A DNA stretch of 64,000 nt from a virus (IMGVR_UViG_3300043480_000021:5422-69421); one strand, 5' to 3'; positions 12,001-38,931 are shown, numbered from the stretch's first letter. Made by a program: numbers and translations. The notes: generated by a model not told the origin, from the sequence alone.

Positions 12001-15000
12001 GCGGAGAGTCCTTTTTTCGGGTCTGCCTTATCTTGGAGCGCGGAGATCTCGGCCTGGACCTCCTCGATGCCGTTCCGGCTGTTCTCGTAAGACTCGATAA
12101 GCTCGCGGTTCTTGTCGGTGACCTTAACCTTCTTACCGAAAGCATAGATCTCGCCTTCGCCGAAATGCTCGATGATCACGCCGTTCGCTTGCTCTTCCTC
12201 GATCGCGCGTTTGATCCTGCGCCGGTTACGGACGGTATTGAGAACCGTAACCGCCACGGACACGAGAGGCGCGGATATGCCGGCGACGAGCATGTTGTCG
12301 GCGAGGTCCTTGTCGGCCTTTCGGTCAGGATCGTAAACGAGATTTGCGACGATGTTCCCGGAAAACGTCTGCGTGCCTTCCTGGACGAGCTCTTCGGGCG
12401 CTTCCTTTCTCGCCTCCCTCCATGCTTCCCGGAAGAGTTTCCGCCACACGGTACCGCCGGCGCCTTTATTGAGACGGACCAGCGCTTCGCCGATACCCGC
12501 GATCTCGGTAATACCGAGCGGAGCGGTCAAGAGACCGGCCAGTTGTGCCTTATCTTCCGACGCGCCGAACTCGATCGCCTCTTTGTACGTATCGCCGCCC
12601 ATCTGCAGGGAAGACAGGAGGGCGATCATCAGCTTTGGGGATTTCGAGAAGCCGCCCGGCATCATTCCGAGCGAGGACCCCACGCCCTGCGGAAGTTTGC
12701 CGGCGAGAAACTCCCGCTCCATGTCTTCGTCGGTCGGCAGCCATTCGTTTAAGAATTGCTCGCCCCTTTCGGCGATCCCGAATGTCGCATAGTCCGAAAC
12801 CTTTTTGCGCGGGTTATCGGCGCCGTAAAGGACGTCGTCGATCGATTTCGAAGCCAAGGCTATGCCTCGATAGGTCGACGCGATCGCGACGGACAGAGCG
12901 GACTTGACGGTACCGAAAATGATGCCCTGGGCGCTGCCCTTGATGTAATCGCCCCAGCTCATTTGAGCGACCCGGCTTTTTCGGGCCTCCTCGGCCAGCT
13001 CGAGCTCGCGCATTTTGCGGTTGCGGTTGGTGATCGAACCGTAGAGCTCAAGTTCGCGCCGCATGTAGTTGGCCGTATTCTGAGCGGCCGCGGCGTCGGT
13101 TGGTCGCAGATCGAGCTCCTGAAAGCCCGTCGCGCGGGAGGCCTGCACCTTTTGATTTCCGCCCTGGATCTGTGCCCGGCGCTCCGATTGGAGCTTCCGG
13201 TACGCTTCGGCTTCCTTTTCGGCGACTGCGCGGGGAAGCCAGCCAACCTTGGCCTTTGCCTGCAGGGAGGCTAGATACGCATCGCCCTCTTGTTTCTGAA
13301 ATTCCTCGAGATATCGGCCGAAGTCTTTTCGCGAAACGCCGCCTTTGACCTTGGCCATCTCGAGCTCGTCGTAGCGCCGATCGGCGAGGGCCGAAGGATC
13401 GAAGTCGTTTTCCTTGAACTGCGCGAGATCGCGCGGCGTGAATTCCTGGCCCGAGGCGATAATGCCGAGAGCGTAATCCTCGAGCATTTTTCGGCGTTTG
13501 GATGAAAAAGCCTGAAGATCCTTAAGATCGCCGCGGGTGATATCGAACGGCTCTGTAGCTTTGTCGCCTTTGGCAAAATAATCCTCATGGCTGTAATTCT
13601 TGCCCGTATCGAGTTTGCGAAAACCAGTAGCTTGGTAAAAAGCCCGGATATCCGACTCGGGCACCTCCCGGAAGAGCTCCGGATCGCCCGCAACAGCGCC
13701 TTTCAGCGTAATCGCCACTTGATGGCTTAAAAGCAATTTAGCCGCTTCGTCGGTCGTTGAATTCTTTAAACGCTCCGGGATTAGTTCGATTCTCGTCTCA
13801 TGGGTGGCCAGCGATGCCAGAGACTCCGGACGAATATCCTTGGTTACAGGGTTTGCGATATACGTCTCGCCCTGATCATCCATCACGCGAATCTCGCCTT
13901 GCTTCAACCCGGCCGTATCCGGGGTGTGGGTAAGAACGCGCCCGTCCGCCGTTTTGATCTGATCGGTCCGCTCGAGGTCCGTTGCTTGTTTTTGCACCTC
14001 ATCTGAGGGGGAATTTCGAGCAACGCGCGGCACGCCGGCGCCCGGGCCGCGCCGTTTTGCCTGTTTCGGCCGGTTGGCGATCGCTACGTCGAGCTCGGCG
14101 AAGAGAGCATTATCGTCGGGTGTGAAAACACCCGTTTGTTTCCCATCCTTTACCGCCTGGTGCCCGTCGATGAATTTGCGGCGCAGCTCCTCCGAATCAG
14201 TGAATCCGTACGTCTTCAGATAACTCTGGTAGGAGGCTTTTAACGCGGGATCGTCCGGAAGCACAGATTTCGGCTTCGTCTTTCCAAGTACCCACGCCGG
14301 CAACTCGCGACGTATCTCAAACTTTTCGCCGTTCGGTTTAGCGAGATACGTTTTGCCGGTCTTCGAGTTTTTTAGCCTTATAAATCCTGGCGGCACATCC
14401 TTATCGTCGGTCTGCACTACCTCGCTGCCGTCTTTCTCCATGAAGCGCAGCTTTGGGTTTTCTTCGGCAATCTTTGTACCATCTACGATAAAATTAACGG
14501 GATTGCCGGCGACCTCTCGCGTGTACCTAGTACCCGCCTTGACGCCCTTTTGCCCGTCCGGGCCATCGGCGCGGATATACTCGGCCTTATTACCGTCCTG
14601 GATGCGCTTTGGCGGGCCGGTAGGCACAAGACGGACCTTTTCGCCTTCGATCTGACCTTCAAGAAGATCGCCGTCGGCATCCTTGAAGTAATGCTTGCCG
14701 CCCGCGGTACCGACATACTCGTGATCACCGAGCTTGCCGGATCGTTCGAAGTCGAACGTAGGGACCTTGTTTCGCTCGAAAGTGGTAGGGATCGGCGCGC
14801 TGAAAGGGGTACTTTCGGGGGAATTAGGAGTTTGATTTTTTTGATTGGTGAGGGCTGTGCCCGGTAGGGCTACGGAAGCAGTCCGCCCGTTTCCGGACTG
14901 CGGACCGCCGGGCGTAATTTGGCGTGACGCGCCGATGGTTTTCTTTTGCGCGTTCAACTGCACGAGCTGTTCCGTGATCTTCCGGATGGCGTCGGAGATA

Positions 15001-15866
15001 CGGCGCCGCTCAACTCGGTCCTTTGTCTTTTTCAGCTGAATCTGGAGATCGTCGCGCTGTTTTGTGAGATTTACGATCGGGTCGACCTCCGGAGGATCCT
15101 CCGGGGCGACATTTGCGCCGGGCATGGTCTCCGGGATCCTCTCAGGTACCAGGATCTCGGGAACCTCACCCGCGGGCTGTCCCGGTTCCGGCTGGCCGCC
15201 TAGCACATCGCCTACAAGGTCGCTGCCGGTCGCGGGTCCATCTTGCGGACGAGCTCCGGCCATAACATCCTGAATCAGGTCGTTGGCCGACGCGATTCCG
15301 AACGGTATGCCCGAAGGCATCGGTCGCGCGGGCGGGCGGGCGAACCCGCCAGTTTTCTCGACGTATGACCGGTACGTTTCTTTAAGATCCGGCCGGTAAG
15401 AATAAAGCCTGATATTTGGGACCTCGCCGGTCCGTCGATAGTAACCGATGATGTTGTTTCTCGCCCCAACATAGCGCAGCCGCCGCACGACGGGATCAAC
15501 AGGATCGCCGGCGACAAACTCACGCAGTCCCATTTGCCAGTTATCCTGCTCGTTGAACGGGTCCAGGCCTTCGGCTTCATAAGGTTTCGCCGTGCCGGGC
15601 ATTATTTGAGAGCCGCCGATCGCCCGGTCGCCGTTTGCGGTTGGTATGCCGCGCTTGACGATATTTGTGCCCGGCCAATAATGAGCGCGTCCGCTTTCGA
15701 TTTTTATGAGGTTGTAATAATCCTCAACATCATCGTCGGAGATATTGACCTTCCGACGACGCGCCTCCTGGGCCGCCTGGTAGAGCTTCGCCCTCACACC
15801 GTTATCGCTTTTTGCTGGTGCTTTCTTGCTTTTGGTGCCGAGTAGATCGTCGATTATGTCGGACAT
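1..15866 (-). CDS. Giant DarB-like / large polyvalent virion-ejected protein, at least 5288 aa, 3'-truncated by the window edge (lytic transglycosylase + SF2 helicase + N6-adenine MTase + further domains)
   Basis: ATG at 15866 (MSDIIDDLLGTKSKK), 8 nt after the upstream stop. My manual translation stays in one frame to position 3 (...IRVMNRIAKEKGLDLNKIW) with no stop seen; frame re-checked at 10040, 3797 and 59. The missing stop explains its absence from the ORF track. Confidence 0.9.
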   Translation of the reverse strand, partial: MSDIIDDLLGTKSKKAPAKSDNGVRAKLYQAAQEARRRKVNISDDDVEDYYNLIKIESGRAHYWPGTNIVKRGIPTANGDRAIGGSQIMPGTAKPYEAEGLDPFNEQDNWQMGLREFVAGDPVDPVVRRLRYVGARNNIIGYYRRTGEVPNIRLYSYRPDLKETYRSYVEKTGGFARPPARPMPSGIPFGIASANDLIQDVMAGARPQDGPATGSDLVGDVLGGQPEPGQPAGEVPEILVPERIPETMPGANVAPEDPPEVDPIVNLTKQRDDLQIQLKKTKDRVERRRISDAIRKITEQLVQLNAQKKTIGASRQITPGGPQSGNGRTASVALPGTALTNQKNQTPNSPESTPFSAPIPTTFERNKVPTFDFERSGKLGDHEYVGTAGGKHYFKDADGDLLEGQIEGEKVRLVPTGPPKRIQDGNKAEYIRADGPDGQKGVKAGTRYTREVAGNPVNFIVDGTKIAEENPKLRFMEKDGSEVVQTDDKDVPPGFIRLKNSKTGKTYLAKPNGEKFEIRRELPAWVLGKTKPKSVLPDDPALKASYQSYLKTYGFTDSEELRRKFIDGHQAVKDGKQTGVFTPDDNALFAELDVAIANRPKQAKRRGPGAGVPRVARNSPSDEVQKQATDLERTDQIKTADGRVLTHTPDTAGLKQGEIRVMDDQGETYIANPVTKDIRPESLASLATHETRIELIPERLKNSTTDEAAKLLLSHQVAITLKGAVAGDPELFREVPESDIRAFYQATGFRKLDTGKNYSHEDYFAKGDKATEPFDITRGDLKDLQAFSSKRRKMLEDYALGIIASGQEFTPRDLAQFKENDFDPSALADRRYDELEMAKVKGGVSRKDFGRYLEEFQKQEGDAYLASLQAKAKVGWLPRAVAEKEAEAYRKLQSERRAQIQGGNQKVQASRATGFQELDLRPTDAAAAQNTANYMRRELELYGSITNRNRKMRELELAEEARKSRVAQMSWGDYIKGSAQGIIFGTVKSALSVAIASTYRGIALASKSIDDVLYGADNPRKKVSDYATFGIAERGEQFLNEWLPTDEDMEREFLAGKLPQGVGSSLGMMPGGFSKSPKLMIALLSSLQMGGDTYKEAIEFGASEDKAQLAGLLTAPLGITEIAGIGEALVRLNKGAGGTVWRKLFREAWREARKEAPEELVQEGTQTFSGNIVANLVYDPDRKADKDLADNMLVAGISAPLVSVAVTVLNTVRNRRRIKRAIEEEQANGVIIEHFGEGEIYAFGKKVKVTDKNRELIESYENSRNGIEEVQAEISALQDKADPKKGLSANRGVLKQIWKLRRELAALQQRQVVISKDIAEKSGISVPSKEKVGDVVIPRDEEILEAKPIEDEDRPDILIPLSPETPAPAAESAPVEAHPSGVSLVDDILGADNSAEAPVQAPEQARPAPTSPESDFTIQKQIVSTLIDESPRSAVLLTESGQGELINGPGAEKLIPVPVDEGVLFVNTEKAKEQLGLNSPEEIAAHVQEKGYSDMLGKVEDHTGDTATGDVVRTEDQTGRELSSSVITDPANIEEQKAQDAAHFPDEPVSQVVMPVSDAVKKREEEKTAEDTMRWIQEAKPSMPESPKEKFVSNLVTSQKPVQTDTGARNVFERFELPVKGERIAEVDLREKTHAAKPLKSLRTRILRKLGYHAQDLENVQPGDLDRIVRDKISKREYFRKSPKKVKPSVLESAVSVDVSRSTASILRKKQNRARLRWKGYEYEVTGKTRVKITHAPAGNVSGEIAGSFESEAFNANNERIAARKPARPSGRPGKAKSLWQFVQSSGGIRPDTDDAKRGRLGGELERISQKELGKIGLVNRNSRYNAEHMAEHAWEMGYLRDLWPDVQDRDPNVFLDLIEEDARGIRRYFVTEEGGEKDAAELVDDHQREEIQQEQLETILAGMNRAEFKKTYEIELFLTDDKAWPIFEDLELDGEISEEKQDDLVKLGYNYGLSEEETRSIINELLTHVARRGEAGPPEESSADALDGRPHAGRKDGPESIFNPDSEEILDETEPESDGVDLSFDFSDEENESDAEEDISFDFGENVAEPQKEAAAPGRIGEPAKEAEAAPALFSDLVDEDVKTAKTLPELFPESREASLVDDWGGRRASGMDQFAQSGAMRLALKQAVNQADKLAGIDREEAITLLEDLWNGIYAWWTVAPRSALSERAQTFYDEMAAESFGLTLRNEIDRLVEEAKTVDEPISPFRTEEGRQEMAKAAKDAQAEDGDLDLSGMGGLAIDQRAYFEQEKKAKKQKTEYGKKNTFVTEDKAEAARKLLREKLKGTQHNAGLDPDVAKAGIELAAYHIEAGARLFADYAKAMIEDLGAGVIPYLKSWYLAVQFDPETSHFTAGMNDIAAIDKALDQFSAETDKVVQATAEKPEIATEDAPATVDEIPAAPADQATQTLPPAGDTLFDMGGLDQEGLFAVGGPAAIGETPDNDAGKREQIARLKQNATDTERERNMNVFGPELGRLLIERKANPSTPHASRAAGIVLARRGDIEAKGRPALDLVGDVVAAIEEIGEAEMRGMPFEEFILQGGLFGATEFTSAQREVYDEIGAGRFEGFFNKRLDQLDAAKEYGDVASSTEDLARDSSERPGDEFRQELPNAESGRDGDSARTSSDRAGEQGSGSEGSDIVPGAGAAPGGTRGDIEVRESPPGDQASTSGDFDDGRGGPDSDSGLLFEYRPSDAVRAAAQRNSELGEKRRLQEEAESHELVLRDLDNIRATLPFLLPEQHEDVLFAENRLEEGEGVLFTNGTGTGKTYTGLGIAKRLHRQGKKSILIIAPNDKILEDWRTSAENVLINAKRLESTVDHGRDGTVLTTYANFRANNTLIERVWDAIIFDESHYLSQNKDGDETGAVQMLRAVALHDRGQWNYHAVKNAAELEQLEAAREEKEKASRQYRRTYSEADKGKYDEANAKYKRLLDALQPLQDAAYAEYDRRRETEARPKVVFLSATPFAYEKNIEYAEGYLFSYGPDVDTGGYNSGSSKDRFFMQHFGYRMRYNKLTKPDADVNTELMEQQFNSMLQKAGALRGRRLNIDVDYSRKFILAESAIGMKIDEGFQYIWDQSQNKALETIEQRRFWNLHEYARKRFNYLAKRFTLEAINARSVIPIVKAQLEAGRKVVVFHDYNKNEAIHPFDFGPDFNGVIRLDGEIYDVGDVYAKFTAARPDLVGLDLTTLVAPNEVFPAEFGDQVKMFNGTVPKMKRREAVADFNDDAGSTKILLSQSDAGREGISLHDTTGQYQRVLINLGLPVRPIAAIQTEGRIYRVGTKTNAIQLYITTGTNFEQYAFGTQISQRASTAENLALGEEARALRQAFIDGYQEAVTDYAPSENEGLGGKEGDRALAAAMTDYQKAIGFYFGKGKKTSRNKSAEGKDYYATPEPIGLKMVEWADQRLAEHTLEPSAGHGAIARWFRPDNRKTVIEPSQELAAQLSLVTDGRLERDIFENHHTGANKYHTIVMNPPFGSGGKTAVDHVAKAAKHLHNQGRIVALIPDGPAADKQLEKFLKSEDAKDLYKIGDIHLPGVAFKRAATQVRTHIIILEKQFFPEHVKQLPSGGGLDLSHFDDIKELFDYLEHVEVEPRIVTSEAGPVSITPSPAAAAMEGAEGAPAQTAGVGSDMFDAAEFDHTTNGNRIFVAKPKELLDKATFNTLRYTMAPRYGGYYSKFNKGGAVAGFHFSTAAERDAFIAEASMPTGMKAAILPGPAPTFYSQVEKVITDKMPKRAPADQVRGILKPEYGIKKEELDWLGIDDFLASKDAFSKDEVLDFVRSNNVQVEEVIKGGTFRTGDIFIKEWNSESTERNGRKGKLHYFQADITRPHPVYEEHGQKIRVGSIFEDGKIFEATSAQGVKQFHTFDEAKRYLNDGAEVRFMDEGLGNPFEASPTKYSDRVLPGGENYRELLLTLPTSESALTSDQLTRYQKLDAMDTGDVSIAQRQEWEMLANRKNLNSANDRIFQSKHFDEPNILAHIRFNDRTDADGKKTLFIEEIQSDWHQAGREQGYSPKGPQKQYFLRKPDGDIGQDFASKEEGEQFFDKNPHAGSLDSFINNETGVLDAPFKKSWHELAFKRALRYAAENGYGAVAWTTGETQNDRYDLSTQVKSLSYTYSDGQYGIKGVSLRGNPFDIGVYDEAGLAAAVGKELAEKIKTDREGGLLTKEYTGDNLKLEGSGMKGFYDKIIPNFVDKYTRKWDAKVTPAEINTNQYGVVQSGTGDFYIVGNDSKPIGEKSAARPYKIEENAEAAAKRMNTQKAHAVEITPEMQISVMQGQPLFATRLPGQKSYDEIVGASLGDLIAPMRVELDGPKSYRIKLNAEAAEFLRRVYQEIRFQQTKTQAFEVPFYALFDILKDTKSNREFTAKVIRFINDQAKEAQRLGYTTNEVLNIKNVADAIEIAAENGAGGFIFYVDDRFLPEEEFHRAGYMIFNAAISEDRFADNLNHHTAVEKYKQIYGAYLDQFPASVRDAVAWDETAAILARGGMEELGVSEDEAVEYLAGFFESIAKRLEEKGINVEQALKNYDAVREQHIREQIRRTTEEYRSRREKAGRPGRDSEQGGQKPQSPPGEDPGSPPGGAGGERFNLGPPVLKGPGIASLPETLRAHGYESDRKTYDIRSHDDVRRAVAEMADYANVAEIIYQKLLSGKDLSSVDTGLAIELVQRLQREARADLKAGKKDFYEAKKGQAAQIADILDEKLREAGRFIEAVKLMEPFSPDFIVETAKRRMQRFDPDAEMTPDLEAELLKMAEELEESKNAVDELTRKYGRLDRRFKKYRELDRVERQKRRRARRAKNRISRAKESIIKKLAEKESDIIDKFRDRFNPPTDMKAANMTAMKAADVTTAQNVGLTDEELNELAEFGALELARGMIKLEPEMFTLRLQEIFGAGIRPFADQIHARSYAKYKELLREENKKNALERLKSANPDLNDAEIDQLYTERKEKQKEARKIANAHLKQARAADPEATGKKSRAARRGSTSAGTSGTDTDPALTPLQQAIIDEAEKQDIDPILRETSLMLANPKTRDYNGIARVLNDRHGLTKEEADRMIGKGLAFVRDVKRVRAEKVQEARAEKEAELTDEARAEIDAAHARHRQAENELRKKLDALSRKPVGYMPRLRRIWKGLLISSYKTAFNNAISGGFTIGVRTATDTIDLFLRKAATKGKIKLGEDGLDPKLKFRDILALQAWRALRSRRMAEGILDRYAYQYEMMFGRYNADIEADVKHDQVDGNKALAKVDKGADAAFRGAEWFVDKVNIFNMVQEFHVRSIEFIRVMNRIAKEKGLDLNKIW
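5180..5740 (-). other. N6-adenine DNA methyltransferase domain of the giant protein
   Basis: DYYATPEPIG, SAM-binding LEPSAGHG (about 5625-5650) and catalytic IVMNPPF (about 5455-5475), in gamma-class order. Confidence 0.85.
5880..7700 (-). other. SF2 helicase domain (Strawberry-notch-like) of the giant protein
   Basis: Walker A FTNGTGTGKT (about 7575-7600), Walker B IIFDESH (about 7320-7340), motif III LSATP (about 6985-7000), and C-terminal AGREGISLH...QTEGRIYR (about 6045-6170). Confidence 0.85.
7757..8119 (-). CDS. Nested (overprinted, +1 frame) 120-aa protein inside the giant ORF
   Basis: SD AAGGAG at 8127-8132, 7 nt before ATG 8119; TAG at 7757. The product MLQVAPKIWHEIAANGLATNFGRNFLTLKADEMAIAHERAATELENKG... 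has globular helical composition. The giant-ORF frame over the same bases is a G/S/D/R-rich disordered linker. Confidence 0.7.
   Translation of the reverse strand: MLQVAPKIWHEIAANGLATNFGRNFLTLKADEMAIAHERAATELENKGVDPKVAISYLELAPLLAERVAISRYANHHPAIRQVLPEILTTDEAVQIATRDSFLNIDQATQLGQLLNATLN
15330..15866 (-). other. N-terminal lytic transglycosylase (SLT/lysozyme-like) domain of the giant protein
   Basis: Catalytic-Glu motif LIKIESG (about 15693-15710), followed by GGSQIMPGTA and LDPFNEQDNWQMGLREF, matching the SLT E-S, GxxQ and helix-N pattern. Boundaries approximate. Confidence 0.75.
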
Positions 15867-15874
15867 GATAAAAG

Positions 15875-17017
15875 CTACTGGGTAGGAATGTACCCCCACG
15901 TTTGCATCGCATAGGCCTCGAGGGCTGTCCGCGTCTCTTCCGGGGTCGGCATCCGGAAGTTGGTCCGTGAGAAATTAGCTTCCCATTGCGAGCGATACGT
16001 CGACATTTGCTGCCGGGCCTGCTGGTACTGAGTCGCGGTGATCTGTTTCGTCTGCCGGTTATTTTGCTGCTGCTGGTTAAACTGCGTCGACCACTGCGAA
16101 AGAACGAGCGGCGCGAGCTGCTTCGGAGCTATCTTCAGCGGTACGCCGCCGATCTTCGCGTCGATCGGCACTTCCGACGCGTCGACGGGCATACCGGGCG
16201 AGGGTTCCCACTCTTTGGTGTCCGGGTTCTGGGTGAAGAACGCGCCGGCCTGCTCCTTCGTTTCGCGCCTTCTCGCATCGAAGTCCGAGAGCTCGATATC
16301 GGCATCGGCGAGCTGCTGGTCAAAATCCGCGTTCGCGCCCTTCTTGTAAAAATTCTGCTTCGCGATCTGGCCGAGGAGCTGCTGCCGGAGCGTAAGTTTG
16401 CGTTTCTCCTCGTCGCCTTTAAGCTTTTCTTCATCCCGCGCCTTTCGATCGGCGTCGTCGCGGGTCATATTTTCCATTTGCGACTGCTTGTAGGCGCTTT
16501 GGAAATACTGGTCCTCTTCCTTATCGAGCTGGCCGAGGTCCTTGCGGTTCGTTTCCTGCTTACGAAGCCGCGCATCTTCCTCGTCCCACTTGTCGTTGAT
16601 CATGCCGCCGGCGAACGCCCCGGGCGCTCTCGACAGACGCCCGAAAAACTCTTCCCAGTTTTTGACGACGCCCAACTGCGGGCTGTAGGCGTCCGCCAAG
16701 GCGCGGAGACCGGCTTCGGCGCCGCTCCTTAAGCGCGAGTCTTCGGATTTTTCCGTTTTATGAGAAAGCTGCTCCCTTTCTTCCTCGAGCTTCCTGCGAC
16801 GATCGGCATAAGGCCCGACATAGGGCACGGACGCGCCTTTCGCGATCGCTTCGGGCGAAGGGTTGGCATTAAAGTGCTGATCGCCGAGATCCGCCGGCTG
16901 TTGTGGACGAAAAACGGTAGGGACCAGCGTGTTACCGCCGCGGCCGCTAAGCGTGGCAAAATCTTCCTCGGCATCGCGCCGGCGTACGGTCGGTACTCGT
17001 GATTGCTGATTTCTCAT
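15875..17017 (-). CDS. Putative internal virion/ejection protein (380 aa)
   Basis: Q/E/K-rich helical protein directly upstream of the giant ejection gene. Function inferred from position only. Confidence 0.5.
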   Translation of the reverse strand: MRNQQSRVPTVRRRDAEEDFATLSGRGGNTLVPTVFRPQQPADLGDQHFNANPSPEAIAKGASVPYVGPYADRRRKLEEEREQLSHKTEKSEDSRLRSGAEAGLRALADAYSPQLGVVKNWEEFFGRLSRAPGAFAGGMINDKWDEEDARLRKQETNRKDLGQLDKEEDQYFQSAYKQSQMENMTRDDADRKARDEEKLKGDEEKRKLTLRQQLLGQIAKQNFYKKGANADFDQQLADADIELSDFDARRRETKEQAGAFFTQNPDTKEWEPSPGMPVDASEVPIDAKIGGVPLKIAPKQLAPLVLSQWSTQFNQQQQNNRQTKQITATQYQQARQQMSTYRSQWEANFSRTNFRMPTPEETRTALEAYAMQTWGYIPTQ

Positions 17018-17042
17018 ACTCGACTTAAAATAAAGCTGCCCT

Positions 17043-17723
17043 ATGACTTATTTGCGACACGCCAACGGCGGAGGGAAAAAATTTGACGAGGCCGAGGCAG
17101 ATCCCGGTACGTTTCTTTCCCGTTCGTCCTCGATATCGGGCGAATCCGATCTATTCGAGGCCGTTGTAGATAACACCGAGGAAGACAAGATCGTCGACTC
17201 GTTTATCCACCAGGCGCAAATTATCAACTCTTCCGTTCTCTCGACCATCGTCGCCGGCAAGGTCCGTGTTGAAAACTGCCTTGTGGCCTGTAAATCGATA
17301 ACCGGCCACGTACGCGCGACGAATTCCATCCTCCAGGGGGAAACTCGCCTTTTCGGTTCAGCGGAATCCCACAATTCCGCATTTCAAAATCTGTCCGTCG
17401 GCGGTACCGCGAAGATCGTCGACTGGAACAAGCTTTTCAAAACCAACGGTACCGGGCCCCATATCTTTGACGGCCAGTTCGGCCGGATAACGTCGGGTAC
17501 ATGGACGAGACCGCCGCGGATTATCCGTTTTGAGGACCTCGAGGTCACTGTAACCGAAAGCACCGAGGGGCGCGCCTTTGTCGGTTGTATCGAAAAACCG
17601 ATGAAGCGCTGGATCCAGGGCGGTCATTCGTACGGCGCCGCCCGCGGCTGGTCACCGGAACAGGTCGACCGTCTGGCCGATATTTTCAAAGAATGGTTAC
17701 TTGCCTCTCAGATACGGTACTAA
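17043..17723 (+). CDS. Hypothetical protein with beta-helix-like (hexapeptide-type) repeats; the only convincing plus-strand gene (moron-like)
   Basis: 226 aa with periodic I/V-x-x-S/A pattern (IVDSFIHQAQIINSSVLSTIVAGKVRVENCLV). It fills a gap with no credible minus-strand gene. Confidence 0.65.
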   Translation: MTYLRHANGGGKKFDEAEADPGTFLSRSSSISGESDLFEAVVDNTEEDKIVDSFIHQAQIINSSVLSTIVAGKVRVENCLVACKSITGHVRATNSILQGETRLFGSAESHNSAFQNLSVGGTAKIVDWNKLFKTNGTGPHIFDGQFGRITSGTWTRPPRIIRFEDLEVTVTESTEGRAFVGCIEKPMKRWIQGGHSYGAARGWSPEQVDRLADIFKEWLLASQIRY

Positions 17724-18044
17724 GAAGACCAGGAACCCGATCACCGCGATAGCCGTGCCCACGATCGCGTAAAACTCCTTCCTACTAAGAAAATCTCTCT
17801 CCCTGTCGGTCATGGCGCCGCGCCACTCGTTTGCGCTCTTTCGCCAGTTTTCGCCTTGTTTTTCGAGCTTGTCGGCGGCAAGGGTGGACGCCGTGAGCGT
17901 CACGTCCGTTTTTCCCTCCTGGTCCTTGAAACGTTGGTCGATGTGCCCGTACAGGTCCTTGAAGCGCTGGTCAACGTTCATGCCGGCGTCCGTAAACCGC
18001 TGGTCAACATAGTCCCTCATTTGTACCGTTTCGGTTTTTGCCAT
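17697..18044 (-). CDS. Holin-like membrane protein (coiled coil + C-terminal TM)
   Basis: 115 aa ending FYAIVGTAIAVIGFLVFLVPYLRGK; last gene of the lysis cluster. Confidence 0.5.
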   Translation of the reverse strand: MAKTETVQMRDYVDQRFTDAGMNVDQRFKDLYGHIDQRFKDQEGKTDVTLTASTLAADKLEKQGENWRKSANEWRGAMTDRERDFLSRKEFYAIVGTAIAVIGFLVFLVPYLRGK

Positions 18045-18057
18045 CTTTCCCGGTCGT

Positions 18058-18729
18058 TTACGCGCCTTTCTCGATCTCAGCGATCATCCACATCTTCCCG
18101 ACCCATCCGAGAACGTTACCGAGCTCGTCTTTATTGCAATAGGCCTCGCACCTCACCGAGACCACCGATTCGTCAGGCCGGATAACACGAAAGCGGTCGC
18201 TGAAGTCTGTACCGTCGCGGACCGATGACATCCAGTTCTCGACGACGGCCTCCCGGTAGTGGCCATGTATCGCGTTGCGCCAGTTAAAGCCCGTGATCTG
18301 CTCTAATTTGCGGCCGGTCATCACCAGAAACGCGGTATTGGCCCAAAGGACCGCGCCTTTCATATTGGCCTCGAAAAATGCGTCCTCGTCGCATTGCATG
18401 ATCGCTCGCCTGGCGGCCGTCTCCGTGGCGACGTGCGCGCGGATGCTGTCGAGGCTGGATCGGAGCCAGGTAATCTCTTCGATAAGGGTTTTACCGCTCT
18501 CGACCTTCATTTGCGCTTCAAGCCGGGCAACGACGTTCGGAGCGTCAAGAAATCGACCGCACCAGCGCTGTGCGGCCTTTAAGCGCTTATGACAGAACTT
18601 CAGATAACCACCGATCGCGCCGAGTCCGCCGAGGAAAAGTAAAACATAGCCATAGTACTCGGCCAGGGTTGCTATCAGCTTCGGGGTCGTTTCGGGAGTT
18701 GGTTCCAACATAATGTCCTTTCCGCTCAT
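18058..18729 (-). CDS. Membrane-anchored PAS-domain protein
   Basis: N-terminal TM (YYGYVLLFLGGLGAIGGYL), coiled coil, then PAS signature FFEANMKGAVLWANTAFLVMTGRKLEQITGFNWRNAIH...FRVIRPDESVVSVRCEAYCNKDELGNVLGWVGKM. Start placed at MSGKD, just after the upstream stop. Confidence 0.8.
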   Translation of the reverse strand: MSGKDIMLEPTPETTPKLIATLAEYYGYVLLFLGGLGAIGGYLKFCHKRLKAAQRWCGRFLDAPNVVARLEAQMKVESGKTLIEEITWLRSSLDSIRAHVATETAARRAIMQCDEDAFFEANMKGAVLWANTAFLVMTGRKLEQITGFNWRNAIHGHYREAVVENWMSSVRDGTDFSDRFRVIRPDESVVSVRCEAYCNKDELGNVLGWVGKMWMIAEIEKGA

Positions 18730-18734
18730 AAAAC

Positions 18735-19319
18735 TTAATCCGCGGCCCACGCCGGAATGACCGCCTCGGGCCGATAGTTAGACCCGAGCAGCGCCTTCAG
18801 GCCGGCGCCGGCGAGAACGCCCAGCACCATCTCGGCCGCCCTCTTGATCCCGCTCAGGATCTTCTGGAAAATGTTCTTTTTCGGCTTCATGAGCTGCAGC
18901 TGCATCCACGCGATAAAGTCCTGCTGGATCTTGATCATCCCCTGCAGGAGAAGCTCGAGCTGCTTATGCGCGTCGATCTCCTGGTTCTTGATGGCGAGGA
19001 CACGGTCGAAGCTTCCTATCAGCACGGTCGCGACGGCGCGCTCGGCACGGCTTGCGCCCTGGGCTTCGGCGGCTTTAACCGCAGCTTCCCGAAGGGCTAA
19101 TACCTCGTCGAAAGCCTTATTAGAATCGTCGACATAGGTCTGGTCGACCACGACCGGATTGTTAACATCCGGCGGAACCGGGATAAGCCTTGCACCGGGC
19201 TCGGTTTGACCGGCGGAGGTTTGAATTAGCGTAATTAGCATTACGTACAGCATCAGCATAGCGCCGAGCTGCGTCCGCAGCCTCGTTCTTCGTGTCGGTT
19301 TCAGTTTTTGCAGCTTCAT
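18735..19319 (-). CDS. Secreted coiled-coil protein overlapping the spanin-like gene (o-spanin analogue?)
   Basis: Basic n-region plus hydrophobic h-region signal peptide, coiled coil, hydrophobic C-terminal segment LGVLAGAGLKALLG. It overlaps the upstream gene by 158 nt in another frame, as in Rz/Rz1 pairs. Confidence 0.5.
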   Translation of the reverse strand: MKLQKLKPTRRTRLRTQLGAMLMLYVMLITLIQTSAGQTEPGARLIPVPPDVNNPVVVDQTYVDDSNKAFDEVLALREAAVKAAEAQGASRAERAVATVLIGSFDRVLAIKNQEIDAHKQLELLLQGMIKIQQDFIAWMQLQLMKPKKNIFQKILSGIKRAAEMVLGVLAGAGLKALLGSNYRPEAVIPAWAAD

Positions 19320-19593
19320 GGTCTTTCCTGTTCTCCTCGAGGATCGCGCTCTCTGCCGCGTCCTCTTTCTCCAGCTCGTGGATCACTCCCTCCTGGGTTT
19401 CAATGGCCTGCCCTTGCGCGTTCACATTCGCCTGGAACTCGCTCATCTTTTTGTTGGTGAAAAATCCGTCTATCCCGCCAAAGATGGCGCCCAAGACAGC
19501 GCAGATGATGACGAAAACAAGGACCACGACGGCGACTCCGATCCCGATCTGCCAACCACCGGATAACTTTTTAAATCTCGTGGCCAATTTCAT
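19162..19593 (-). CDS. Rz-like inner-membrane spanin candidate
   Basis: N-terminal TM (WQIGIGVAVVVLVFVIICAVLGAIF), long periplasmic coiled coil, two C-terminal Cys; directly downstream of the endolysin candidate. Confidence 0.6.
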   Translation of the reverse strand: MKLATRFKKLSGGWQIGIGVAVVVLVFVIICAVLGAIFGGIDGFFTNKKMSEFQANVNAQGQAIETQEGVIHELEKEDAAESAILEENRKDHEAAKTETDTKNEAADAARRYADAVRNANYANSNLRRSNRARCKAYPGSAGC

Positions 19594-19608
19594 TTCGCGG
19601 TTTCCTCC

Positions 19609-20928
19609 TTAACCAGCTTCGGGCTCGAACGCTTCTTGGTTCGGATTTATAGGAGCCAAAGCGGCCGCGACTGCCGCCCTACGCTCGCCGTTGCCAAACA
19701 CTTCGGGCATCGCCGTAGGTATGAGGTTGTGGGTCGTCGGGTTTTGCCATGAGTTCTGGCACATAGCTATGATCTCGAGGACCTTTTGACGCTGGGTGAT
19801 GATCAGGTAGATGACCAGCGACGCGGTGACGATCGTTCCGACGCCCAGGAGTATCTGAAGATGCGGAGGCAAATTCATTACCCAGGTTATCGCCGTCAGG
19901 AGCATTCCCCCGCCCGGGATCGCCGACAGCCACTTCAATCTGCCGAGCTGCGGAAGAAACACCGGTACGTTCTTTTGCTCGAACGTGCTGGTCGTCGCCG
20001 TCATAGTCTTTTCAACGGTTCCGTCGTCTTTTTCGGTTACGGACTCCGTAAACTCGCCAAGCGGCGCGTCCTCGCCGGGTTCGCCACCCACTCCCATGGG
20101 AGCGGCCTCGAAGGTTGCCGCGTGAGGATCTTCGTCGCCAATGATGCCGGCGTTCAGAATGTCGTCTTCGTCGTCGAGCTCGGCGATCGCGGCCTGAACC
20201 GCGGCTACCGATAACGGCTTGCGCTCGTCGACGAACGAAACGGCTGCCTTGACCTTCGGAACGTTGACGAAATGCTGCGCCTGGTACCGCATATCCGCGG
20301 CGGTGTCGAATTCGTTCTCCTCGAGTTCGAGGATGTGATTGAACTCGGCCTGCGTCAGGAGAATGTACGGGATATTTCCAACGCCAACATTGAACTGCTT
20401 CGTCGCCCTGCGCTGTATACCGAGAGGTACGTCCACACCGAGGGCGTCGCCGACAAAGGTAATAAATTCCGCGAATTGTTTGCGCGGGCACGTCTGGCAG
20501 CCGCGGCTTCCCGTTGTGCGATCGCCGCCGGCGTGGATATTGATCGCCGTTCCCATCGACTCGTAGAGCTGTCCGGACCTAATCGATTTCCGGTAGCATT
20601 TCAGCTGTTGCGCGGGATTATTCGGCCGAAGGGCAACGTAACGCTTCCCGTTCTCGCTGATGTGGTGATAGGACATTTTGAAGAAATGAACGCCGGTCCG
20701 GAGGATCGCCACTTCGGTCGCGCCGACGGCAAACATGCTCGGATCCGCATTCCAGTTAAAAGCCTTGATCGTGTCCGCCTTTCGGCTATACCAAAAGCCT
20801 TCGTCGTCGAACCAGTTAATGCCGGCGTTCCTGATCGCGAGGCCGATGCACTCGTAGTTTTTCCAATCGTCTCCGAAAAAGTAGCGGTAAATTTTTTCTG
20901 CCGATGAACGGCGTAAAGCTGGTCTCAA
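19609..20928 (-). CDS. Endolysin candidate: YkuD/L,D-transpeptidase-like catalytic domain + acidic linker + two C-terminal TM helices
   Basis: Motif INIHAGGDRTTGSRGCQT (H...S-x-G-C) near 20490-20545. Hydrophobic segments LSAIPGGGMLLTAITWVM and LQILLGVGTIVTASLVIYLII. First gene of the lysis cluster. Confidence 0.6.
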   Translation of the reverse strand: MRPALRRSSAEKIYRYFFGDDWKNYECIGLAIRNAGINWFDDEGFWYSRKADTIKAFNWNADPSMFAVGATEVAILRTGVHFFKMSYHHISENGKRYVALRPNNPAQQLKCYRKSIRSGQLYESMGTAINIHAGGDRTTGSRGCQTCPRKQFAEFITFVGDALGVDVPLGIQRRATKQFNVGVGNIPYILLTQAEFNHILELEENEFDTAADMRYQAQHFVNVPKVKAAVSFVDERKPLSVAAVQAAIAELDDEDDILNAGIIGDEDPHAATFEAAPMGVGGEPGEDAPLGEFTESVTEKDDGTVEKTMTATTSTFEQKNVPVFLPQLGRLKWLSAIPGGGMLLTAITWVMNLPPHLQILLGVGTIVTASLVIYLIITQRQKVLEIIAMCQNSWQNPTTHNLIPTAMPEVFGNGERRAAVAAALAPINPNQEAFEPEAG

Positions 20929-20968
20929 TGTCTAAAACCTCCAAAACTAACTGCCTTTAACGCTTCAT

Positions 20969-22240
20969 TTACGCGTTAACCTGGTACGTAAAAGTGAAAT
21001 ACATGTCTTGTCTCGAAACATCAGCGGCCATCCATTGCATAGACGCCCCCTCATTTGCGTTGTCCGCCAAGATGGCGGCACCGAGCCCTGCGACGCCCGG
21101 ACTGAACGCAACACCCGCACATTGCTCTGCCCCGGCTAAACTCGTCGAAACAGGCAGCGAAATGCCCAAAAGCGTATTACCGGCAGCTGTCGGGTCGACT
21201 GTGACCCTGCCGGAGACCGTAACAGCATCCCCCACGCGCAACCATTGACACATATACGGCGTAGAAGCGGCAATATTAAGCGTGTCGAAAAGTGTCGGGT
21301 TATAAGTGCCGTAGTTTGAGCCTACGATCGAATTGCCGTTCAGCGAGATGTCACCGCCTGAAGTGAACTCAAGATTTGCATCGGCGTGAATTTGAACCTT
21401 ACCGGTTAGGGCATCGATTTTAATGTCATTTACCGGGTCCGTCGCGACGTTTTCGATAAATCCGCCAACTAAGGTTTCTCTCGTCACGGTCTTGACCGTT
21501 GGCGAGGCGGTTACTACCGAATCAGTCCAATCCGCTTCATAAGGAGAATCCGGCATGTCACTGGAAGCATTAACAACGGTCCCGAGGTCATCACGGATTT
21601 CCCACACACCGCTACCTTCAAAATTCCCAATAATGGCGCTTATCTCGTCGCCGGTTCCAGTAGAGTTATAGACGGGTAGGCCGTTATAGGAATGCGTAAA
21701 ATGATAACCACCCGCGCCAAGCCCGGTTACCACTACATCGGTCTGCTTAACCCAGAACTCATCGGTCGGAGCCACCGCTACCGCTTCTTCAGCGGGAGAG
21801 AGGGGAACTGACTCAGGGCCTTGTACCTGTTCCGGCGTAACGGAATACGCAGTCTCAGCAACGGCAACCGCGGGAACGGGGAGCGCTCCGCCGCCGAATA
21901 CCGCCCACACGCCGAGCCATGGATGCTCCACGTCGTCGCTGGTATATTTCCTTACCGCGCCGCCGTATATGGCCCACGATGCGCCTTCATTCACAAGGGA
22001 ATTAACCAAAGGGGCGTCATCTTCGCCGACGAGGTTATAATATGGCTTGTTGTTGGATTCCCCTCTGTAGGTGTACGTGCCTCTTACTGCCGCTGTACCC
22101 GCGAGAGTTACTTCCACGGCATTCTGCACTGCAATAAGCTTTACGCCCGGATCCAATGCCGGAACAGTGTCGAGCAGGTTAACCGCTCCCGCCAAGTTGG
22201 CCGCTATTTGAGCGGCGGTAGTTTTTTTATTTCCGAGCAT
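20969..22240 (-). CDS. Tail fiber / receptor-binding protein
   Basis: 423 aa, beta-rich. Two similar internal modules (TYTYRGESNNKPYYN.../GYHFTHSYNGLPVYN...) and a fiber-tip-like C-terminus (GTYNPTL...WLRVGDAVTVSGRV...FTFTYQV). Confidence 0.65.
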   Translation of the reverse strand: MLGNKKTTAAQIAANLAGAVNLLDTVPALDPGVKLIAVQNAVEVTLAGTAAVRGTYTYRGESNNKPYYNLVGEDDAPLVNSLVNEGASWAIYGGAVRKYTSDDVEHPWLGVWAVFGGGALPVPAVAVAETAYSVTPEQVQGPESVPLSPAEEAVAVAPTDEFWVKQTDVVVTGLGAGGYHFTHSYNGLPVYNSTGTGDEISAIIGNFEGSGVWEIRDDLGTVVNASSDMPDSPYEADWTDSVVTASPTVKTVTRETLVGGFIENVATDPVNDIKIDALTGKVQIHADANLEFTSGGDISLNGNSIVGSNYGTYNPTLFDTLNIAASTPYMCQWLRVGDAVTVSGRVTVDPTAAGNTLLGISLPVSTSLAGAEQCAGVAFSPGVAGLGAAILADNANEGASMQWMAADVSRQDMYFTFTYQVNA

Positions 22241-22243
22241 TGT

Positions 22244-22570
22244 CTATCCTCCGATAACCGCAAATTTAATGTCGATCTCTGTCGTGGTATGCAGAAAGGT
22301 CGTTCCCGCATCGAGGCGCTCCCCGCCCTCGGCCCTCGCGAAATCGAAAGAATCCGCGATGCCGCCCGCGCCGATCTGTAATCCTTCCGTCCCGTCGACG
22401 GGCGGGAGCGTGGAATCGTTCAAATTGATATAGAACGTTTCGGCCGGGTTGGCCGGGTATAAAGTAAGTTGGTCGGTGCCGTTGTTGCGCCCGATATAAC
22501 CCGCGGCGATCAGCAAAGGCATTAACGCTTCGGTACCGTCTACAGTGATGATTCCTGTTTTCTGTGGCAT
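22244..22570 (-). CDS. Hypothetical virion protein (108 aa)
   Basis: MPQKTGIITVDG..., beta-rich, in the tail region; stop 3 nt before the next start. Confidence 0.55.
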   Translation of the reverse strand: MPQKTGIITVDGTEALMPLLIAAGYIGRNNGTDQLTLYPANPAETFYINLNDSTLPPVDGTEGLQIGAGGIADSFDFARAEGGERLDAGTTFLHTTTEIDIKFAVIGG

Positions 22571-22602
22571 AATTTTTCCTCTTTTTTCCTTAGACTTCTT
22601 CT

Positions 22603-23193
22603 CTAAATTGAGCCGGGCGTCATGCCGGCAGAAAGAACCGACGATGTTCCGCCGATCAGCCCGCCGGCTATCCCGGCCCACATATTCATCCTTTGCGCGG
22701 CGATCTGCCGCGCGATCTCGTCATAGCGTGAAGAACGGCTGTCGGCCGCGCCCATCAGGTTCATGCTGATATTGTCTCCCCGCGAAATAACCCCGCGCTC
22801 CATGTCGTTGGTCTCGTTGATATATCCCCGCCAGTCACCCTCGAGCTGCGCGGACGAGGCGCGCGCCTGGTCGGCTTTTAGCTGCGCGGTCTGCAGGCCG
22901 ATGGTCTTACCGTCGGCGTAGCGGTTGCCTATCGCCTGGATCCCGGTCGGCTGCGCGTTCCAGACGGCCTCCCGCTTGCGGTTCATAATGGCCTGGTTAG
23001 CGCTGTTACCGACGAAGTCGACAGCTCCGCCGATATTGCCGGTATCGATGGCTTTCCGCCGCTCGCCGATCCGGGCACTGTATGCCTTCGATTCCGGCGT
23101 GCCTTCCTGGAGCTGCGTTGCGAGTTTCAGGCGCTCCGCTTCCGCGGTCTTTGCCTGCGCTTCGTACTGGCGCTGTTTGTTTTTATTACCCAT
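22603..23193 (-). CDS. Putative small ejection (pilot) protein
   Basis: MGNKNKQRQYEAQ..., A/Q/G-rich helical protein with a Gly-rich hydrophobic C-terminus (WAGIAGGLIGGTSSVLSAG), as in podovirus DNA-transfer proteins. Confidence 0.5.
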   Translation of the reverse strand: MGNKNKQRQYEAQAKTAEAERLKLATQLQEGTPESKAYSARIGERRKAIDTGNIGGAVDFVGNSANQAIMNRKREAVWNAQPTGIQAIGNRYADGKTIGLQTAQLKADQARASSAQLEGDWRGYINETNDMERGVISRGDNISMNLMGAADSRSSRYDEIARQIAAQRMNMWAGIAGGLIGGTSSVLSAGMTPGSI

Positions 23194-23198
23194 AGGCC

Positions 23199-23257
23199 AA
23201 AAAGAAAAAGTCCCTTGTTTCCGGAGCTTCAAAAAGCAAAACTCCAGTAACAAAGGG
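23199..23257 (-). terminator. Long-stem intrinsic terminator-like hairpin
   Basis: CCCUUUGUU-A-CUGGAGUUU pairs with AAGCUCCGG-AAACAAGGG (G-U pairs valid only on the minus strand), followed by ACUUUUUCUUUUU. Confidence 0.65.
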
Positions 23258-23297
23258 CTTAAAACCGATTCGTCTAAACCTACTAAATTTTCAAAAT

Positions 23298-28242: not shown

Positions 28243-28536
28243 TCAAATCCGTAGAACGACGGCAGGCCTGCTTCGAGCGGTTATCCCCGGCGGTCTGTCG
28301 TATGAGACCGGTATCGGAATATCTCCTGTGTAGTTAAGGACCGCGACAGCCAGCGGCGGGCTCTCGCTGGTGAGGTTTGAAACCGCTTTGGTATCGGAAT
28401 GATACCGGTTCGGTATTTTAACAACCTTCTCGGCCGAGGCCTGGATGCGCGGCGTCGGCGAGCTGTCACAGCCTGCAAGCACCATCGCGCCCAGGAATAG
28501 GGCCGTGACGATCAGAGAAATTAGGAATCTCTTCAT
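28243..28536 (-). CDS. Lipoprotein (97 aa)
   Basis: Signal peptide MKRFLISLIVTALFLGAMV followed by a canonical lipobox LAGC; SD AGGAG upstream. Confidence 0.75.
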   Translation of the reverse strand: MKRFLISLIVTALFLGAMVLAGCDSSPTPRIQASAEKVVKIPNRYHSDTKAVSNLTSESPPLAVAVLNYTGDIPIPVSYDRPPGITARSRPAVVLRI

Positions 28537-38664: not shown

Positions 38665-38931
38665 TCAAGGGTGCTTTTCGGAAGGGGATACGGCCGCGCC
38701 GGCGAGACGCTTTTCATGCCGGTTCATACGGTATGACAGCGCAGCCTGGTTAACTATTATGGCAAGGAAAAACTGCATCAAAACTACCATCGCTCCGAAA
38801 ACGGCGTCGAACCGGCTGAGCGCGTCCGGGTCGTATTTCTGCACCTCGTGGCGCATGTTCATGGTGTCGCGGTGACGGGCGACGGCCTTTTCCTCGCCGC
38901 TTAAACGCCTGGTCGATGGTGTTTCGTTCAT
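38665..38931 (-). CDS. Small membrane protein coupled to the sigma gene (anti-sigma candidate)
   Basis: 88 aa, ATGA overlap with the sigma stop, one TM (FDAVFGAMVVLMQFFLAIIV). Confidence 0.5.
   Translation of the reverse strand: MNETPSTRRLSGEEKAVARHRDTMNMRHEVQKYDPDALSRFDAVFGAMVVLMQFFLAIIVNQAALSYRMNRHEKRLAGAAVSPSEKHP

Follow-up and report, generated by a model that had tools for sequence, protein, structure and literature searches.

A candidate lysis cassette with a membrane-tethered YkuD-fold enzyme and a PAS protein in a temperate phage probably of Acidobacteriota

The five tightly coupled genes described here (g1 to g5) lie on the minus strand of a viral stretch, IMGVR_UViG_3300043480_000021:5422-69421, and on balance we read them as the genes for host lysis in a temperate tailed phage that probably infects Acidobacteriota: g1 would be the endolysin, g2 and g3 would substitute for a spanin, and g4 would be an optional regulator. 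The stretch, hereafter the window, measures 64,000 nt and corresponds to bases 5422-69421 of a 69,421-bp IMG/VR provirus with a CheckV completeness of 87%. The logic of the cassette is conventional, whereas its parts are not. Acidobacteriota are a dominant and poorly cultured soil phylum, and what is known of phage lysis comes, to our knowledge, almost entirely from phages infecting Proteobacteria and Firmicutes. A preliminary description, made from the sequence alone, had already proposed a lysis cassette with a membrane-tethered peptidoglycan enzyme, and this reading was supported by the comparative evidence given below.

The cassette comprises, in the order of transcription and all on the minus strand, g1 (19609..20928; a 439-residue endolysin candidate with a TTG start, whose homologues begin MRP...), g2 (19162..19593; a 143-residue protein similar to inner-membrane spanins, or i-spanins), g3 (18735..19319; a 194-residue protein free of cysteine), g4 (18058..18750; a 230-residue membrane-anchored PAS protein, or 223 residues if the start is the ATG at 18729) and g5 (17697..18044; a 115-residue tail-anchored protein and the last gene of the operon). 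The tight coupling noticed earlier was confirmed, the genes being either separated by 5-15 nt or overlapping: 15 nt lie between g1 and g2, g2 and g3 overlap by 158 nt, g3 and g4 overlap by 16 nt with the GTG start of g4 at 18750 and are 5 nt apart with the ATG start at 18729, and 13 nt separate g4 from g5. Ribosome-binding sites of the GGAGG type occur upstream of g1 and g2, and an AGGA-type site for g3 is found inside g2. A codon model built on 15 of the window's confident genes gave g1, g4, g5 and the unique parts of g2 and of g3 their best score in their own frame. A promoter and terminator scan returned sites no commoner than in shuffled sequence.

The catalytic domain of g1 and its family

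The plan of g1 recurs in 14 full-length relatives: a conserved N-terminal domain of 230 residues is joined through an acidic, variable linker to a C-terminus that is hydrophobic. For the N-terminal domain (residues 1-230; 20239..20928, minus strand), the predicted structure displays a YkuD fold. In sequence searches, g1 had no match in Pfam (E<=0.1), NCBIfam or PHROG, Pfam and NCBIfam returned nothing for its distant relatives either, and PDB sequence searches with g1 and with a profile of its domain gave nothing meaningful. As the first full-length model was poor (predicted local distance difference test, pLDDT, of 61.8, with weak Foldseek rows), the domain was refolded with 63 relatives, which resulted in a pLDDT of 92.9 and a predicted template modelling score (pTM) of 0.91. 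In a VIA search of 48,161 PDB representatives with this domain, the top 20 chains were all YkuD-fold peptidoglycan enzymes (Z 5.0-8.0), and the next chain had a Z of 2.9. The YkuD-fold matches included Pgp2, Csd6, LDT_Go, LdtA, Bd1075, LdtMt2, Ldtfm, DpaA, YcbB and Tlde1a; as an example, the top match 6xj7_A aligned over 126 residues with a Z of 8.0 and a root-mean-square deviation of 3.9. Foldseek likewise placed LDT_Go (8qzg) first (E=6.3e-4, probability 1.00), no lysozyme-like chain appeared among the structural matches at Z>=2, and the BFVD matches of g1 include a protein named 'Lysin'.

Conservation within the family is consistent with this fold. H88, H132, S141, G143 and T146 are invariant across the sampled members, and C144 is kept in at least 90% of them. 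The resulting motif H-x8-S-x-G-C-Q-T (H132 ... S141-x-G143-C144-Q-T) resembles the catalytic motif of YkuD enzymes, a similarity established by motif and without superposition of the active sites. Our model-based results suggest that g1 may be a cell-wall enzyme of the cysteine peptidase type with a YkuD (L,D-transpeptidase/carboxypeptidase) fold, its catalytic activity being predicted from fold and motif.

The family is large. A search of 1.84 billion proteins with the g1-domain profile yielded 2170 cluster representatives (clusters at 50% identity), of which 759 reached E<=1e-10; most are single-domain proteins of ~190 residues. The phage family phrog_3000, to which no function is assigned, was matched by 57 of the 60 sampled relatives of the domain (best E=1.4e-24), and we found no mention of it in the literature searched; one sampled relative is labelled 'lysozyme' by its source. 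Among the cultured phages of the phage collection, the domain was found only in gp76 of Bdellovibrio phage phi1422, annotated as 'hypothetical protein'. This gp76 (4980-5513 of the sequence designated L046; such L and P designations are ours for the sequences and proteins compared) shows 41% identity to P0044 and is the last gene of its genome, after the tail-fibre gene. Note also that the closest relative of g1 (55% identity, in L048) is followed, with a 14-nt overlap, by a lipoprotein gene (1499-1810, lipobox LTAC) that is not a g2 homologue.

The membrane tail of g1 and its assignment as an endolysin

Near the C-terminus of g1, a two-helix transmembrane (TM) hairpin is predicted at about residues 333-379 (19792..19932, minus strand), from hydropathy peaks at 333-351 and 359-377 and from model helices at 340-351 and 355-378; the N-terminus of the protein is hydrophilic. 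Since basic residues are present on both sides of the hairpin, the positive-inside rule predicts that both of its ends are cytoplasmic and that the catalytic domain lies on the cytoplasmic face of the membrane. The YkuD-like enzyme with a TM tail of the preliminary description is therefore recovered, in its fold as well as in its tail.

Three sets of observations lead us to consider that g1 is very probably an endolysin. First, the domain occurs in fusions with Phage_lysozyme (P0094, P0135), Glucosaminidase (P0139) and SLT plus PG_binding_1 (P0155), where it would be comparable to the second catalytic domain of bicatalytic lysins. Second, in L001, L004 and L005 the g1 homologue has replication genes on one side and terminase genes on the other, and in L003 it comes after the tail genes; the genes that follow encode small proteins bearing either signal peptides or one or two TM helices. 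Third, in L007 (identical to L025, a 44.8-kb IMG/VR provirus), a 390-residue protein with a GH19-type N-terminus (PDB 9hnv_A, E=1.6e-27) and a C-terminal TM tail precedes the homologues of g2 (72% identity), g3 (82%, with the same overlap) and g4 (70%). The tail of this GH19 protein is 36% identical (E=5e-19) to that of the g1-family member P0014, and the same order (i.e., GH19-like enzyme with a TM tail, g2-like, g3-like and TM-PAS genes) is seen in L043, with parts far more diverged than in L007. A GH19 lysin thus occupies the slot of g1 and, in L007, carries a tail homologous to that of a g1-family member, so that the membrane tail is modular and its catalytic domain can be swapped. What is new for g1 is the enzyme fold, the host phylum and the swap of catalytic domain, the C-terminal tether itself being already known. 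We also considered whether tails ending in '...HNLIP' are always paired with a PAS gene; this was ruled out, as L047 has such a tail and no PAS gene.

We regard it as very improbable that g1 is instead a virion-associated or wall-remodelling enzyme (a true transpeptidase), with the real endolysin either encoded in the portion of the provirus that is missing or being a protein that escaped recognition. The location of g1 downstream of tail-fibre-like genes would fit such an enzyme, the YkuD fold covers cross-linking enzymes as well as hydrolases, and the record is incomplete and has SLT-like motifs in another gene, described below. However, a two-helix membrane hairpin is ill-suited to a virion protein, the homologues in L001, L004, L005 and L047 are distant from tail genes and lie among small membrane proteins, and in both L007 and L043 the place of g1 is taken by a genuine GH19 lysin whose C-terminus forms a membrane tail. 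The fusions of the domain with lysozyme and glucosaminidase domains also recall bicatalytic lysins.

In addition, the endolysin role of g1 has no visible competitor in the provirus. At E<=1, no match was obtained in six-frame searches of the whole 69,421-bp sequence with eight conventional endolysin families and YkuD (the models used include SLT, Phage_lysozyme, Amidase_2, Amidase_3, GH19, Peptidase_M15_4, M23 and YkuD), and the Pfam scans of individual open reading frames (ORFs) revealed no conventional lysin either, so that the earlier remark that the window holds no other endolysin now extends to the provirus sequence beyond it. This absence is to be read for a record that is 87% complete and that includes, in the N-terminus of a giant ORF, SLT-like motifs. 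Indeed, residues ~60-130 of this ORF (window 15500-15720) contain I-E-S-G, G-G-S-Q-I-M-P-G-T-A and D-P-F-N, placed as in the SLT domain of the giant protein of L009 (weak local match, E=0.011). An SLT domain in the giant ORF had no Pfam, PDB or six-frame SLT match and stands at the motif level only; a true SLT domain there would make the protein an entry enzyme rather than the endolysin.

The overlapping g2/g3 pair

The protein encoded by g2 has an N-terminal TM helix (residues 20-38) followed by a coiled coil, as deduced from hydropathy, and thereby combines the N-terminal TM domain and the periplasmic coiled coil by which i-spanins are recognised. It matches phrog_214 ('Rz-like spanin', E=4.8e-7) and phrog_739 (E=3.2e-3), in agreement with the Rz-like protein of the preliminary description, and a conserved C-terminal motif with two cysteines (C134, C143) is kept in all three homologues.

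The start of g3 lies inside the 3' end of g2 in another frame, a layout kept in L007, and its product was correctly described beforehand as an overlapping secreted protein lacking cysteine: it begins with a Sec-type signal peptide (...TSA/GQ), is helical in its middle and ends in a helix that is hydrophobic or amphipathic, and the gene scores as coding in its own frame. Outside the overlap, the substitutions between g3 and its L007 homologue number 15, 9 and 35 at codon positions 1, 2 and 3, respectively. Compared to L007, nucleotide identity reaches 85% in the g2/g3 overlap vs 73% in the rest of g2, as expected for dual coding. There was no match to g3 in Pfam or NCBIfam, and in the protein atlas no score >=0.9 and no TM-score >0.44.

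Spanin genes are adjacent as a rule, and an 'overlapped' layout is known among them (PMC6139136). For g2 and g3 together, we lean slightly towards a spanin equivalent. Since g3 lacks the defining feature of outer-membrane spanins (o-spanins), this concerns its likely function and not its membership of the family. We find it unlikely that the two genes are not a spanin pair at all and that g3 serves some other purpose in the periplasm or the inner membrane, for example the regulation of g2 or an action on the wall; the outer membrane would then be disrupted otherwise, for instance by g2 together with the canonical lipoprotein of 28243-28536 or by an amphipathic helix. In support of this alternative, g3 contains no cysteine, allowing neither a lipid anchor nor disulfides, its 194 residues end in a hydrophobic or amphipathic helix, and no ORF with a lipobox exists on the minus strand within 17000-23500, the canonical lipobox LAGC being found in a 97-residue ORF at window 28243-28536. 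Against it, g3 occupies the classic position of an overlapped o-spanin beside an i-spanin-like gene, a position conserved in L007, and adjacency is the rule for spanin genes. Moreover, a diverged g3 homologue (L043:4414-4869) has a lipobox-like site, LSSC, at the aligned position, followed by an A-x-A signal-peptidase I site; the g2 and g3 homologues of L043 are only ~30% identical overall to those of the window. The 97-residue ORF with the LAGC lipobox, on the minus strand among the tail genes, might be either an exclusion lipoprotein or an o-spanin encoded apart from its partner.

The membrane-anchored PAS protein g4

That g4 carries a PAS domain is certain, which agrees with the TM-PAS protein described beforehand. 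The domain (residues ~115-218; 18097..18408, minus strand) was matched by PAS_3 (PF08447, residues 136-218; 47.3 bits for a gathering score of 25.6, E=2.6e-12), PAS_9 (E=1.8e-7), PAS (E=5.3e-6) and TIGR00229 (E=8.3e-7, 29.2 bits against 22.9), and no match to g4 was found among the PDB sequences. Along the protein, an acidic N-terminus, one TM helix at about residues 25-47, a basic stretch and a helical linker precede the domain. Together with hydropathy, this order of acidic end, lone TM helix and basic stretch suggests an N-out/C-in topology with a cytoplasmic PAS domain.

The relatives of this protein form two subfamilies, 19-25% identical to each other, and their neighbours are informative. 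In the window, the PAS gene stands between g1, g2, g3 and g5; in L007/L008, it follows a tailed GH19 gene, two small genes, g2 and g3; in L009/L010, it comes after a Phage_holin_10 gene and three other genes and is followed by a gene for a 563-residue protein and by a giant ORF, as in the window; in L001/L002 and L045, it directly follows a g1 homologue; and in L043, it comes after a tailed GH19-like enzyme, a g2-like and a g3-like gene. In contrast, the PAS gene of L042 and L044 stands alone, directly upstream of TerS/TerL. Overall, the PAS gene adjoins lysis genes in 5 of the 6 lineages examined, and in 4 of those 5 it is found next to a membrane-tailed endolysin, the remaining lineage being L009, where no endolysin was identified. 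Note that many cassettes of the g1 family (L003-L005, L011-L015, L047) contain no PAS gene, so that the protein appears dispensable or optional and could be a passenger.

The recurrence of the PAS gene next to tailed endolysins, together with its optional nature, is the pattern that a regulator of tethered endolysins would produce. We nevertheless treat the role of g4 in lysis regulation as a possibility somewhat short of an even chance. The 'timing component' of the preliminary description was an interpretation, and synteny links the PAS gene with lysis genes in the majority of lineages, not in all. None of the literature searched describes a PAS protein as part of a phage's natural lysis cassette.

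It is also possible, although we doubt it, that only g1 to g3 are lysis genes and that g4 and g5 are accessory membrane proteins of the 'moron' type at the end of the late operon (e.g., for interference with host signalling or for superinfection exclusion), whose nearness to the lysis genes would reflect inheritance as a module and the usual insertion spots. The L042 and L044 relatives beside the terminase genes, with no lysis gene adjacent, and the missing PAS gene of most g1-family cassettes would agree with such accessory genes, as would the variability of the slot after the PAS gene, which is filled by a 128-residue protein in L007, the 563-residue protein in L009 and a chorismate mutase in L043, with no g5 homologue in the PAS-bearing relatives. 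However, the two PAS subfamilies both occur directly after lysis genes, in five lineages, L043 keeps the order endolysin, g2-like, g3-like and PAS despite ~30% identity in g2 and g3, and the PAS gene adjoins a membrane-tailed endolysin in four of these lineages.

The tail-anchored protein g5

In g5, DQRF(K/T)D is repeated three times; the protein also has a helical region and, at its C-terminus, one TM helix (residues 91-109). Its description as a C-terminal-TM, holin-like protein thus stood for the TM helix and not for the holin label. Its PHROG matches are families of unknown function, and its atlas matches are unnamed viral clusters only (0.93-0.94). Tail-anchored proteins of similar architecture follow the g1 homologues of L004, L005, L011 and L047; homology between them and g5 was examined and rejected (hhalign probability 0.5%), the likeness being architectural only. 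From these sequence features, a role of g5 as a holin or antiholin is conceivable but doubtful.

Proposed mechanism and its weighing

Altogether, we propose that the C-terminal hairpin would keep g1 tied to the cytoplasmic membrane at its inner face, in the manner of the Enc34/M4Lys class of endolysins, and that the enzyme would get to the wall upon membrane breach or depolarisation, possibly via its own hairpin. The g2 protein would be an inner-membrane coiled-coil protein and g3 its secreted partner, the two standing in for a two-component spanin in a phage whose g3 may have lost, or never had, the lipid anchor. Travelling with membrane-tethered endolysins, g4 would most likely modulate when or whether the tethered enzyme is released, and g5 could be a further membrane component, such as a holin partner or an antiholin. 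More tentatively still, with the odds in our view clearly on the other side, the membrane-anchored PAS protein might represent an undescribed class of phage lysis regulators coupling, by way of a cytoplasmic sensor domain, the release or activation of a tethered endolysin to a signal within the host (e.g., redox or energy state, or a metabolite), and a secreted protein free of cysteine might replace the lipoprotein half of the spanin.

Several points weigh against the lysis reading of the five genes. For the enzyme, the His-to-Cys spacing of g1 is 12 vs ~19-21 in characterised YkuD enzymes, and g1 matches neither the YkuD Pfam model PF03734 (six-frame search of the provirus, E<=1) nor, directly, phrog_3000. 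For its partners, g3 has no cysteine and hence no lipobox, and no recognisable holin exists in the cassette, the only match of this kind being that of g5 to Phage_holin_2_4, which at 13.6 bits (E=0.069) falls short of the cut-off of 30. As for synteny, the 70-82% identity of the g2-g3-g4 block between the window and L007 is explicable by recent common descent alone, and there are PAS relatives beside terminase genes only as well as g1-family cassettes with no PAS gene.

The provirus and its other genes

Nearly all genes of the provirus are carried by the minus strand. Along the direction of transcription, they encode ParB and DnaB, a PhageMetallopep protein, a PAPS reductase, a DUF2280 protein and the large terminase, then the head and tail proteins, g1 to g5, a 380-residue protein and the giant ORF. 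On the left of the window, the provirus contains a tRNA-Lys(CTT) gene (1412-1487 of L049), a likely prophage integration site, and downstream of it a tyrosine integrase gene (1611-2861 of L049; PDB integrase matches to E=5e-11). The presence of both at the left end indicates that the element is an integrated temperate phage. In addition, g1 relatives occur in metagenome-assembled genomes of Acidobacteriota and Pyrinomonadaceae, and the host is probably a member of the Acidobacteriota, which agrees with the earlier guess of an Acidobacteriota prophage. An IS110-like ORF at 1-978 of L049 was assigned from its sequence by eye only.

Around the cassette, one ORF lies on the plus strand (window 17043-17723, 226 residues), the only one of the region; it is coding according to the codon model, has no family match, is convergent with g5 (27-nt overlap) and starts 25 nt from the start of the minus-strand gene of 380 residues. 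Just downstream of the cassette, the giant ORF of 6003 residues occupies window 3-15899 on the minus strand and extends to provirus base 3309 (L049), with ResIII/Helicase_C and methyltransferase domains in its C-terminal half. An ORF of >4586 residues with SLT, ddrB-ParB and ResIII domains holds the same position after the PAS gene of L009, and the giant ORF resembles the 'polyvalent' proteins of mobile elements.

Elsewhere in the window, the structural module includes a gene for a sigma-70 factor of the extracytoplasmic function type (38928-39509, minus strand; regions 2 and 4 with E=9e-17 and 3e-15, respectively), and the PhageMetallopep (PF18894) gene (48636-49301, minus strand) lies near the DUF2280 gene, which is small-terminase-like. 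In L004 (10831-11436) and L005 (10840-11451), the PhageMetallopep gene is directly downstream of the g1 lysis cassette, unlike in the window, suggesting that the cassette has moved in the phage studied here.

Significance

The cassette provides a worked example of lysis from Acidobacteriota phages. Our results also offer a likely function, that of an endolysin cell-wall peptidase domain, for a large family related to phrog_3000 (~2170 clusters at 50% identity), and they present the C-terminal anchoring of endolysins as swappable and far wider than the Chi-like phages of its original description. If true, a PAS sensor input into the lysis decision would be a new kind of lysis control, testable with a two- to four-gene system, and the PAS regulator would give temperate Acidobacteriota phages a condition-dependent lysis independent of a classical holin clock. 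A lipid-free spanin partner, if true, would alter how spanins are searched for.

Comparison with known systems

The closest architecture to that of g1 is found in ORF39 of Hafnia phage Enc34, M4Lys of Salmonella phage BSPM4 and the enzyme of phage Siskin, which are endolysins with a C-terminal TM domain (PMC8943055, PMC7143992). M4Lys lyses independently of a holin or Sec if its TM domain is present, and the route by which the membrane is crossed in these phages is unknown (PMC8943055, PMC7143992). This architecture appeared limited to Chivirus and related phages (PMC8943055). Like g1, these enzymes combine an N-terminal catalytic domain, a linker and a two-helix C-terminal TM domain, have no N-terminal signal, and are encoded within a lysis cassette with overlapping spanin genes (spanin-like in our case) downstream. 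They differ in the catalytic domain, which is PHA02564 lysozyme-like in the three phages but has a YkuD fold in g1 and is of the GH19 type in L007 and L043, in the linker, which is acidic and of ~100 residues in g1, and in their hosts, enterobacteria vs, probably, Acidobacteriota.

With YkuD enzymes, such as the LD-carboxypeptidases Pgp2 and Csd6, Bd1075, LDT_Go (structure 8qzg; PMC10864386) and Tlde1a, g1 shares the fold (Z 6.0-8.0), the S-x-G-C motif and an upstream invariant histidine. It departs from them in its PF03734 result, its shorter His-Cys spacing and its relatives in phrog_3000, and its activity is a prediction. Among phage lysins, 'YkuD' is a rare catalytic class, with 10 entries in the PhaLP database (PMC8310338).

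The g2/g3 pair parallels the overlapped spanins (P2 LysB/LysC, lambda Rz/Rz1; PMC6139136), in which a coiled-coil protein with an N-terminal TM helix is followed by an out-of-frame gene with an export signal. Unlike o-spanins, g3 has neither a lipobox cysteine nor any other, and it is three times the usual o-spanin length. As for g5, it may be likened to the XhlA-type holin partners of Bacillus phages, such as XhlA of PBSX, which are likewise small lysis-cassette proteins in which a helical, cytoplasmic N-terminal part is followed by one TM helix at the C-terminus; in contrast to XhlA, g5 belongs to a phage of a diderm host, and the Pfam scan at E<=0.1 gave no such family for it.

For g4, the closest known systems are the Mu releasin gp25 (PMC9239132) and, beside it, the T4 antiholins RI and RIII. 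The releasin and, by prediction, g4 have one N-terminal TM helix and a cytoplasmic soluble part, and their genes stand beside that of a membrane-tethered endolysin. The two proteins are not related in sequence, as DUF2730 of the releasin is not among the Pfam matches of g4 at E<=0.1, and they differ in that the soluble part of g4 is a PAS domain and its partner endolysin is anchored by its C-terminus, instead of being an endolysin of the signal-anchor-release (SAR) type. By analogy, the gp25-like topology of g4 and its tethered-endolysin neighbour suggest that g4 may control the release of the endolysin.

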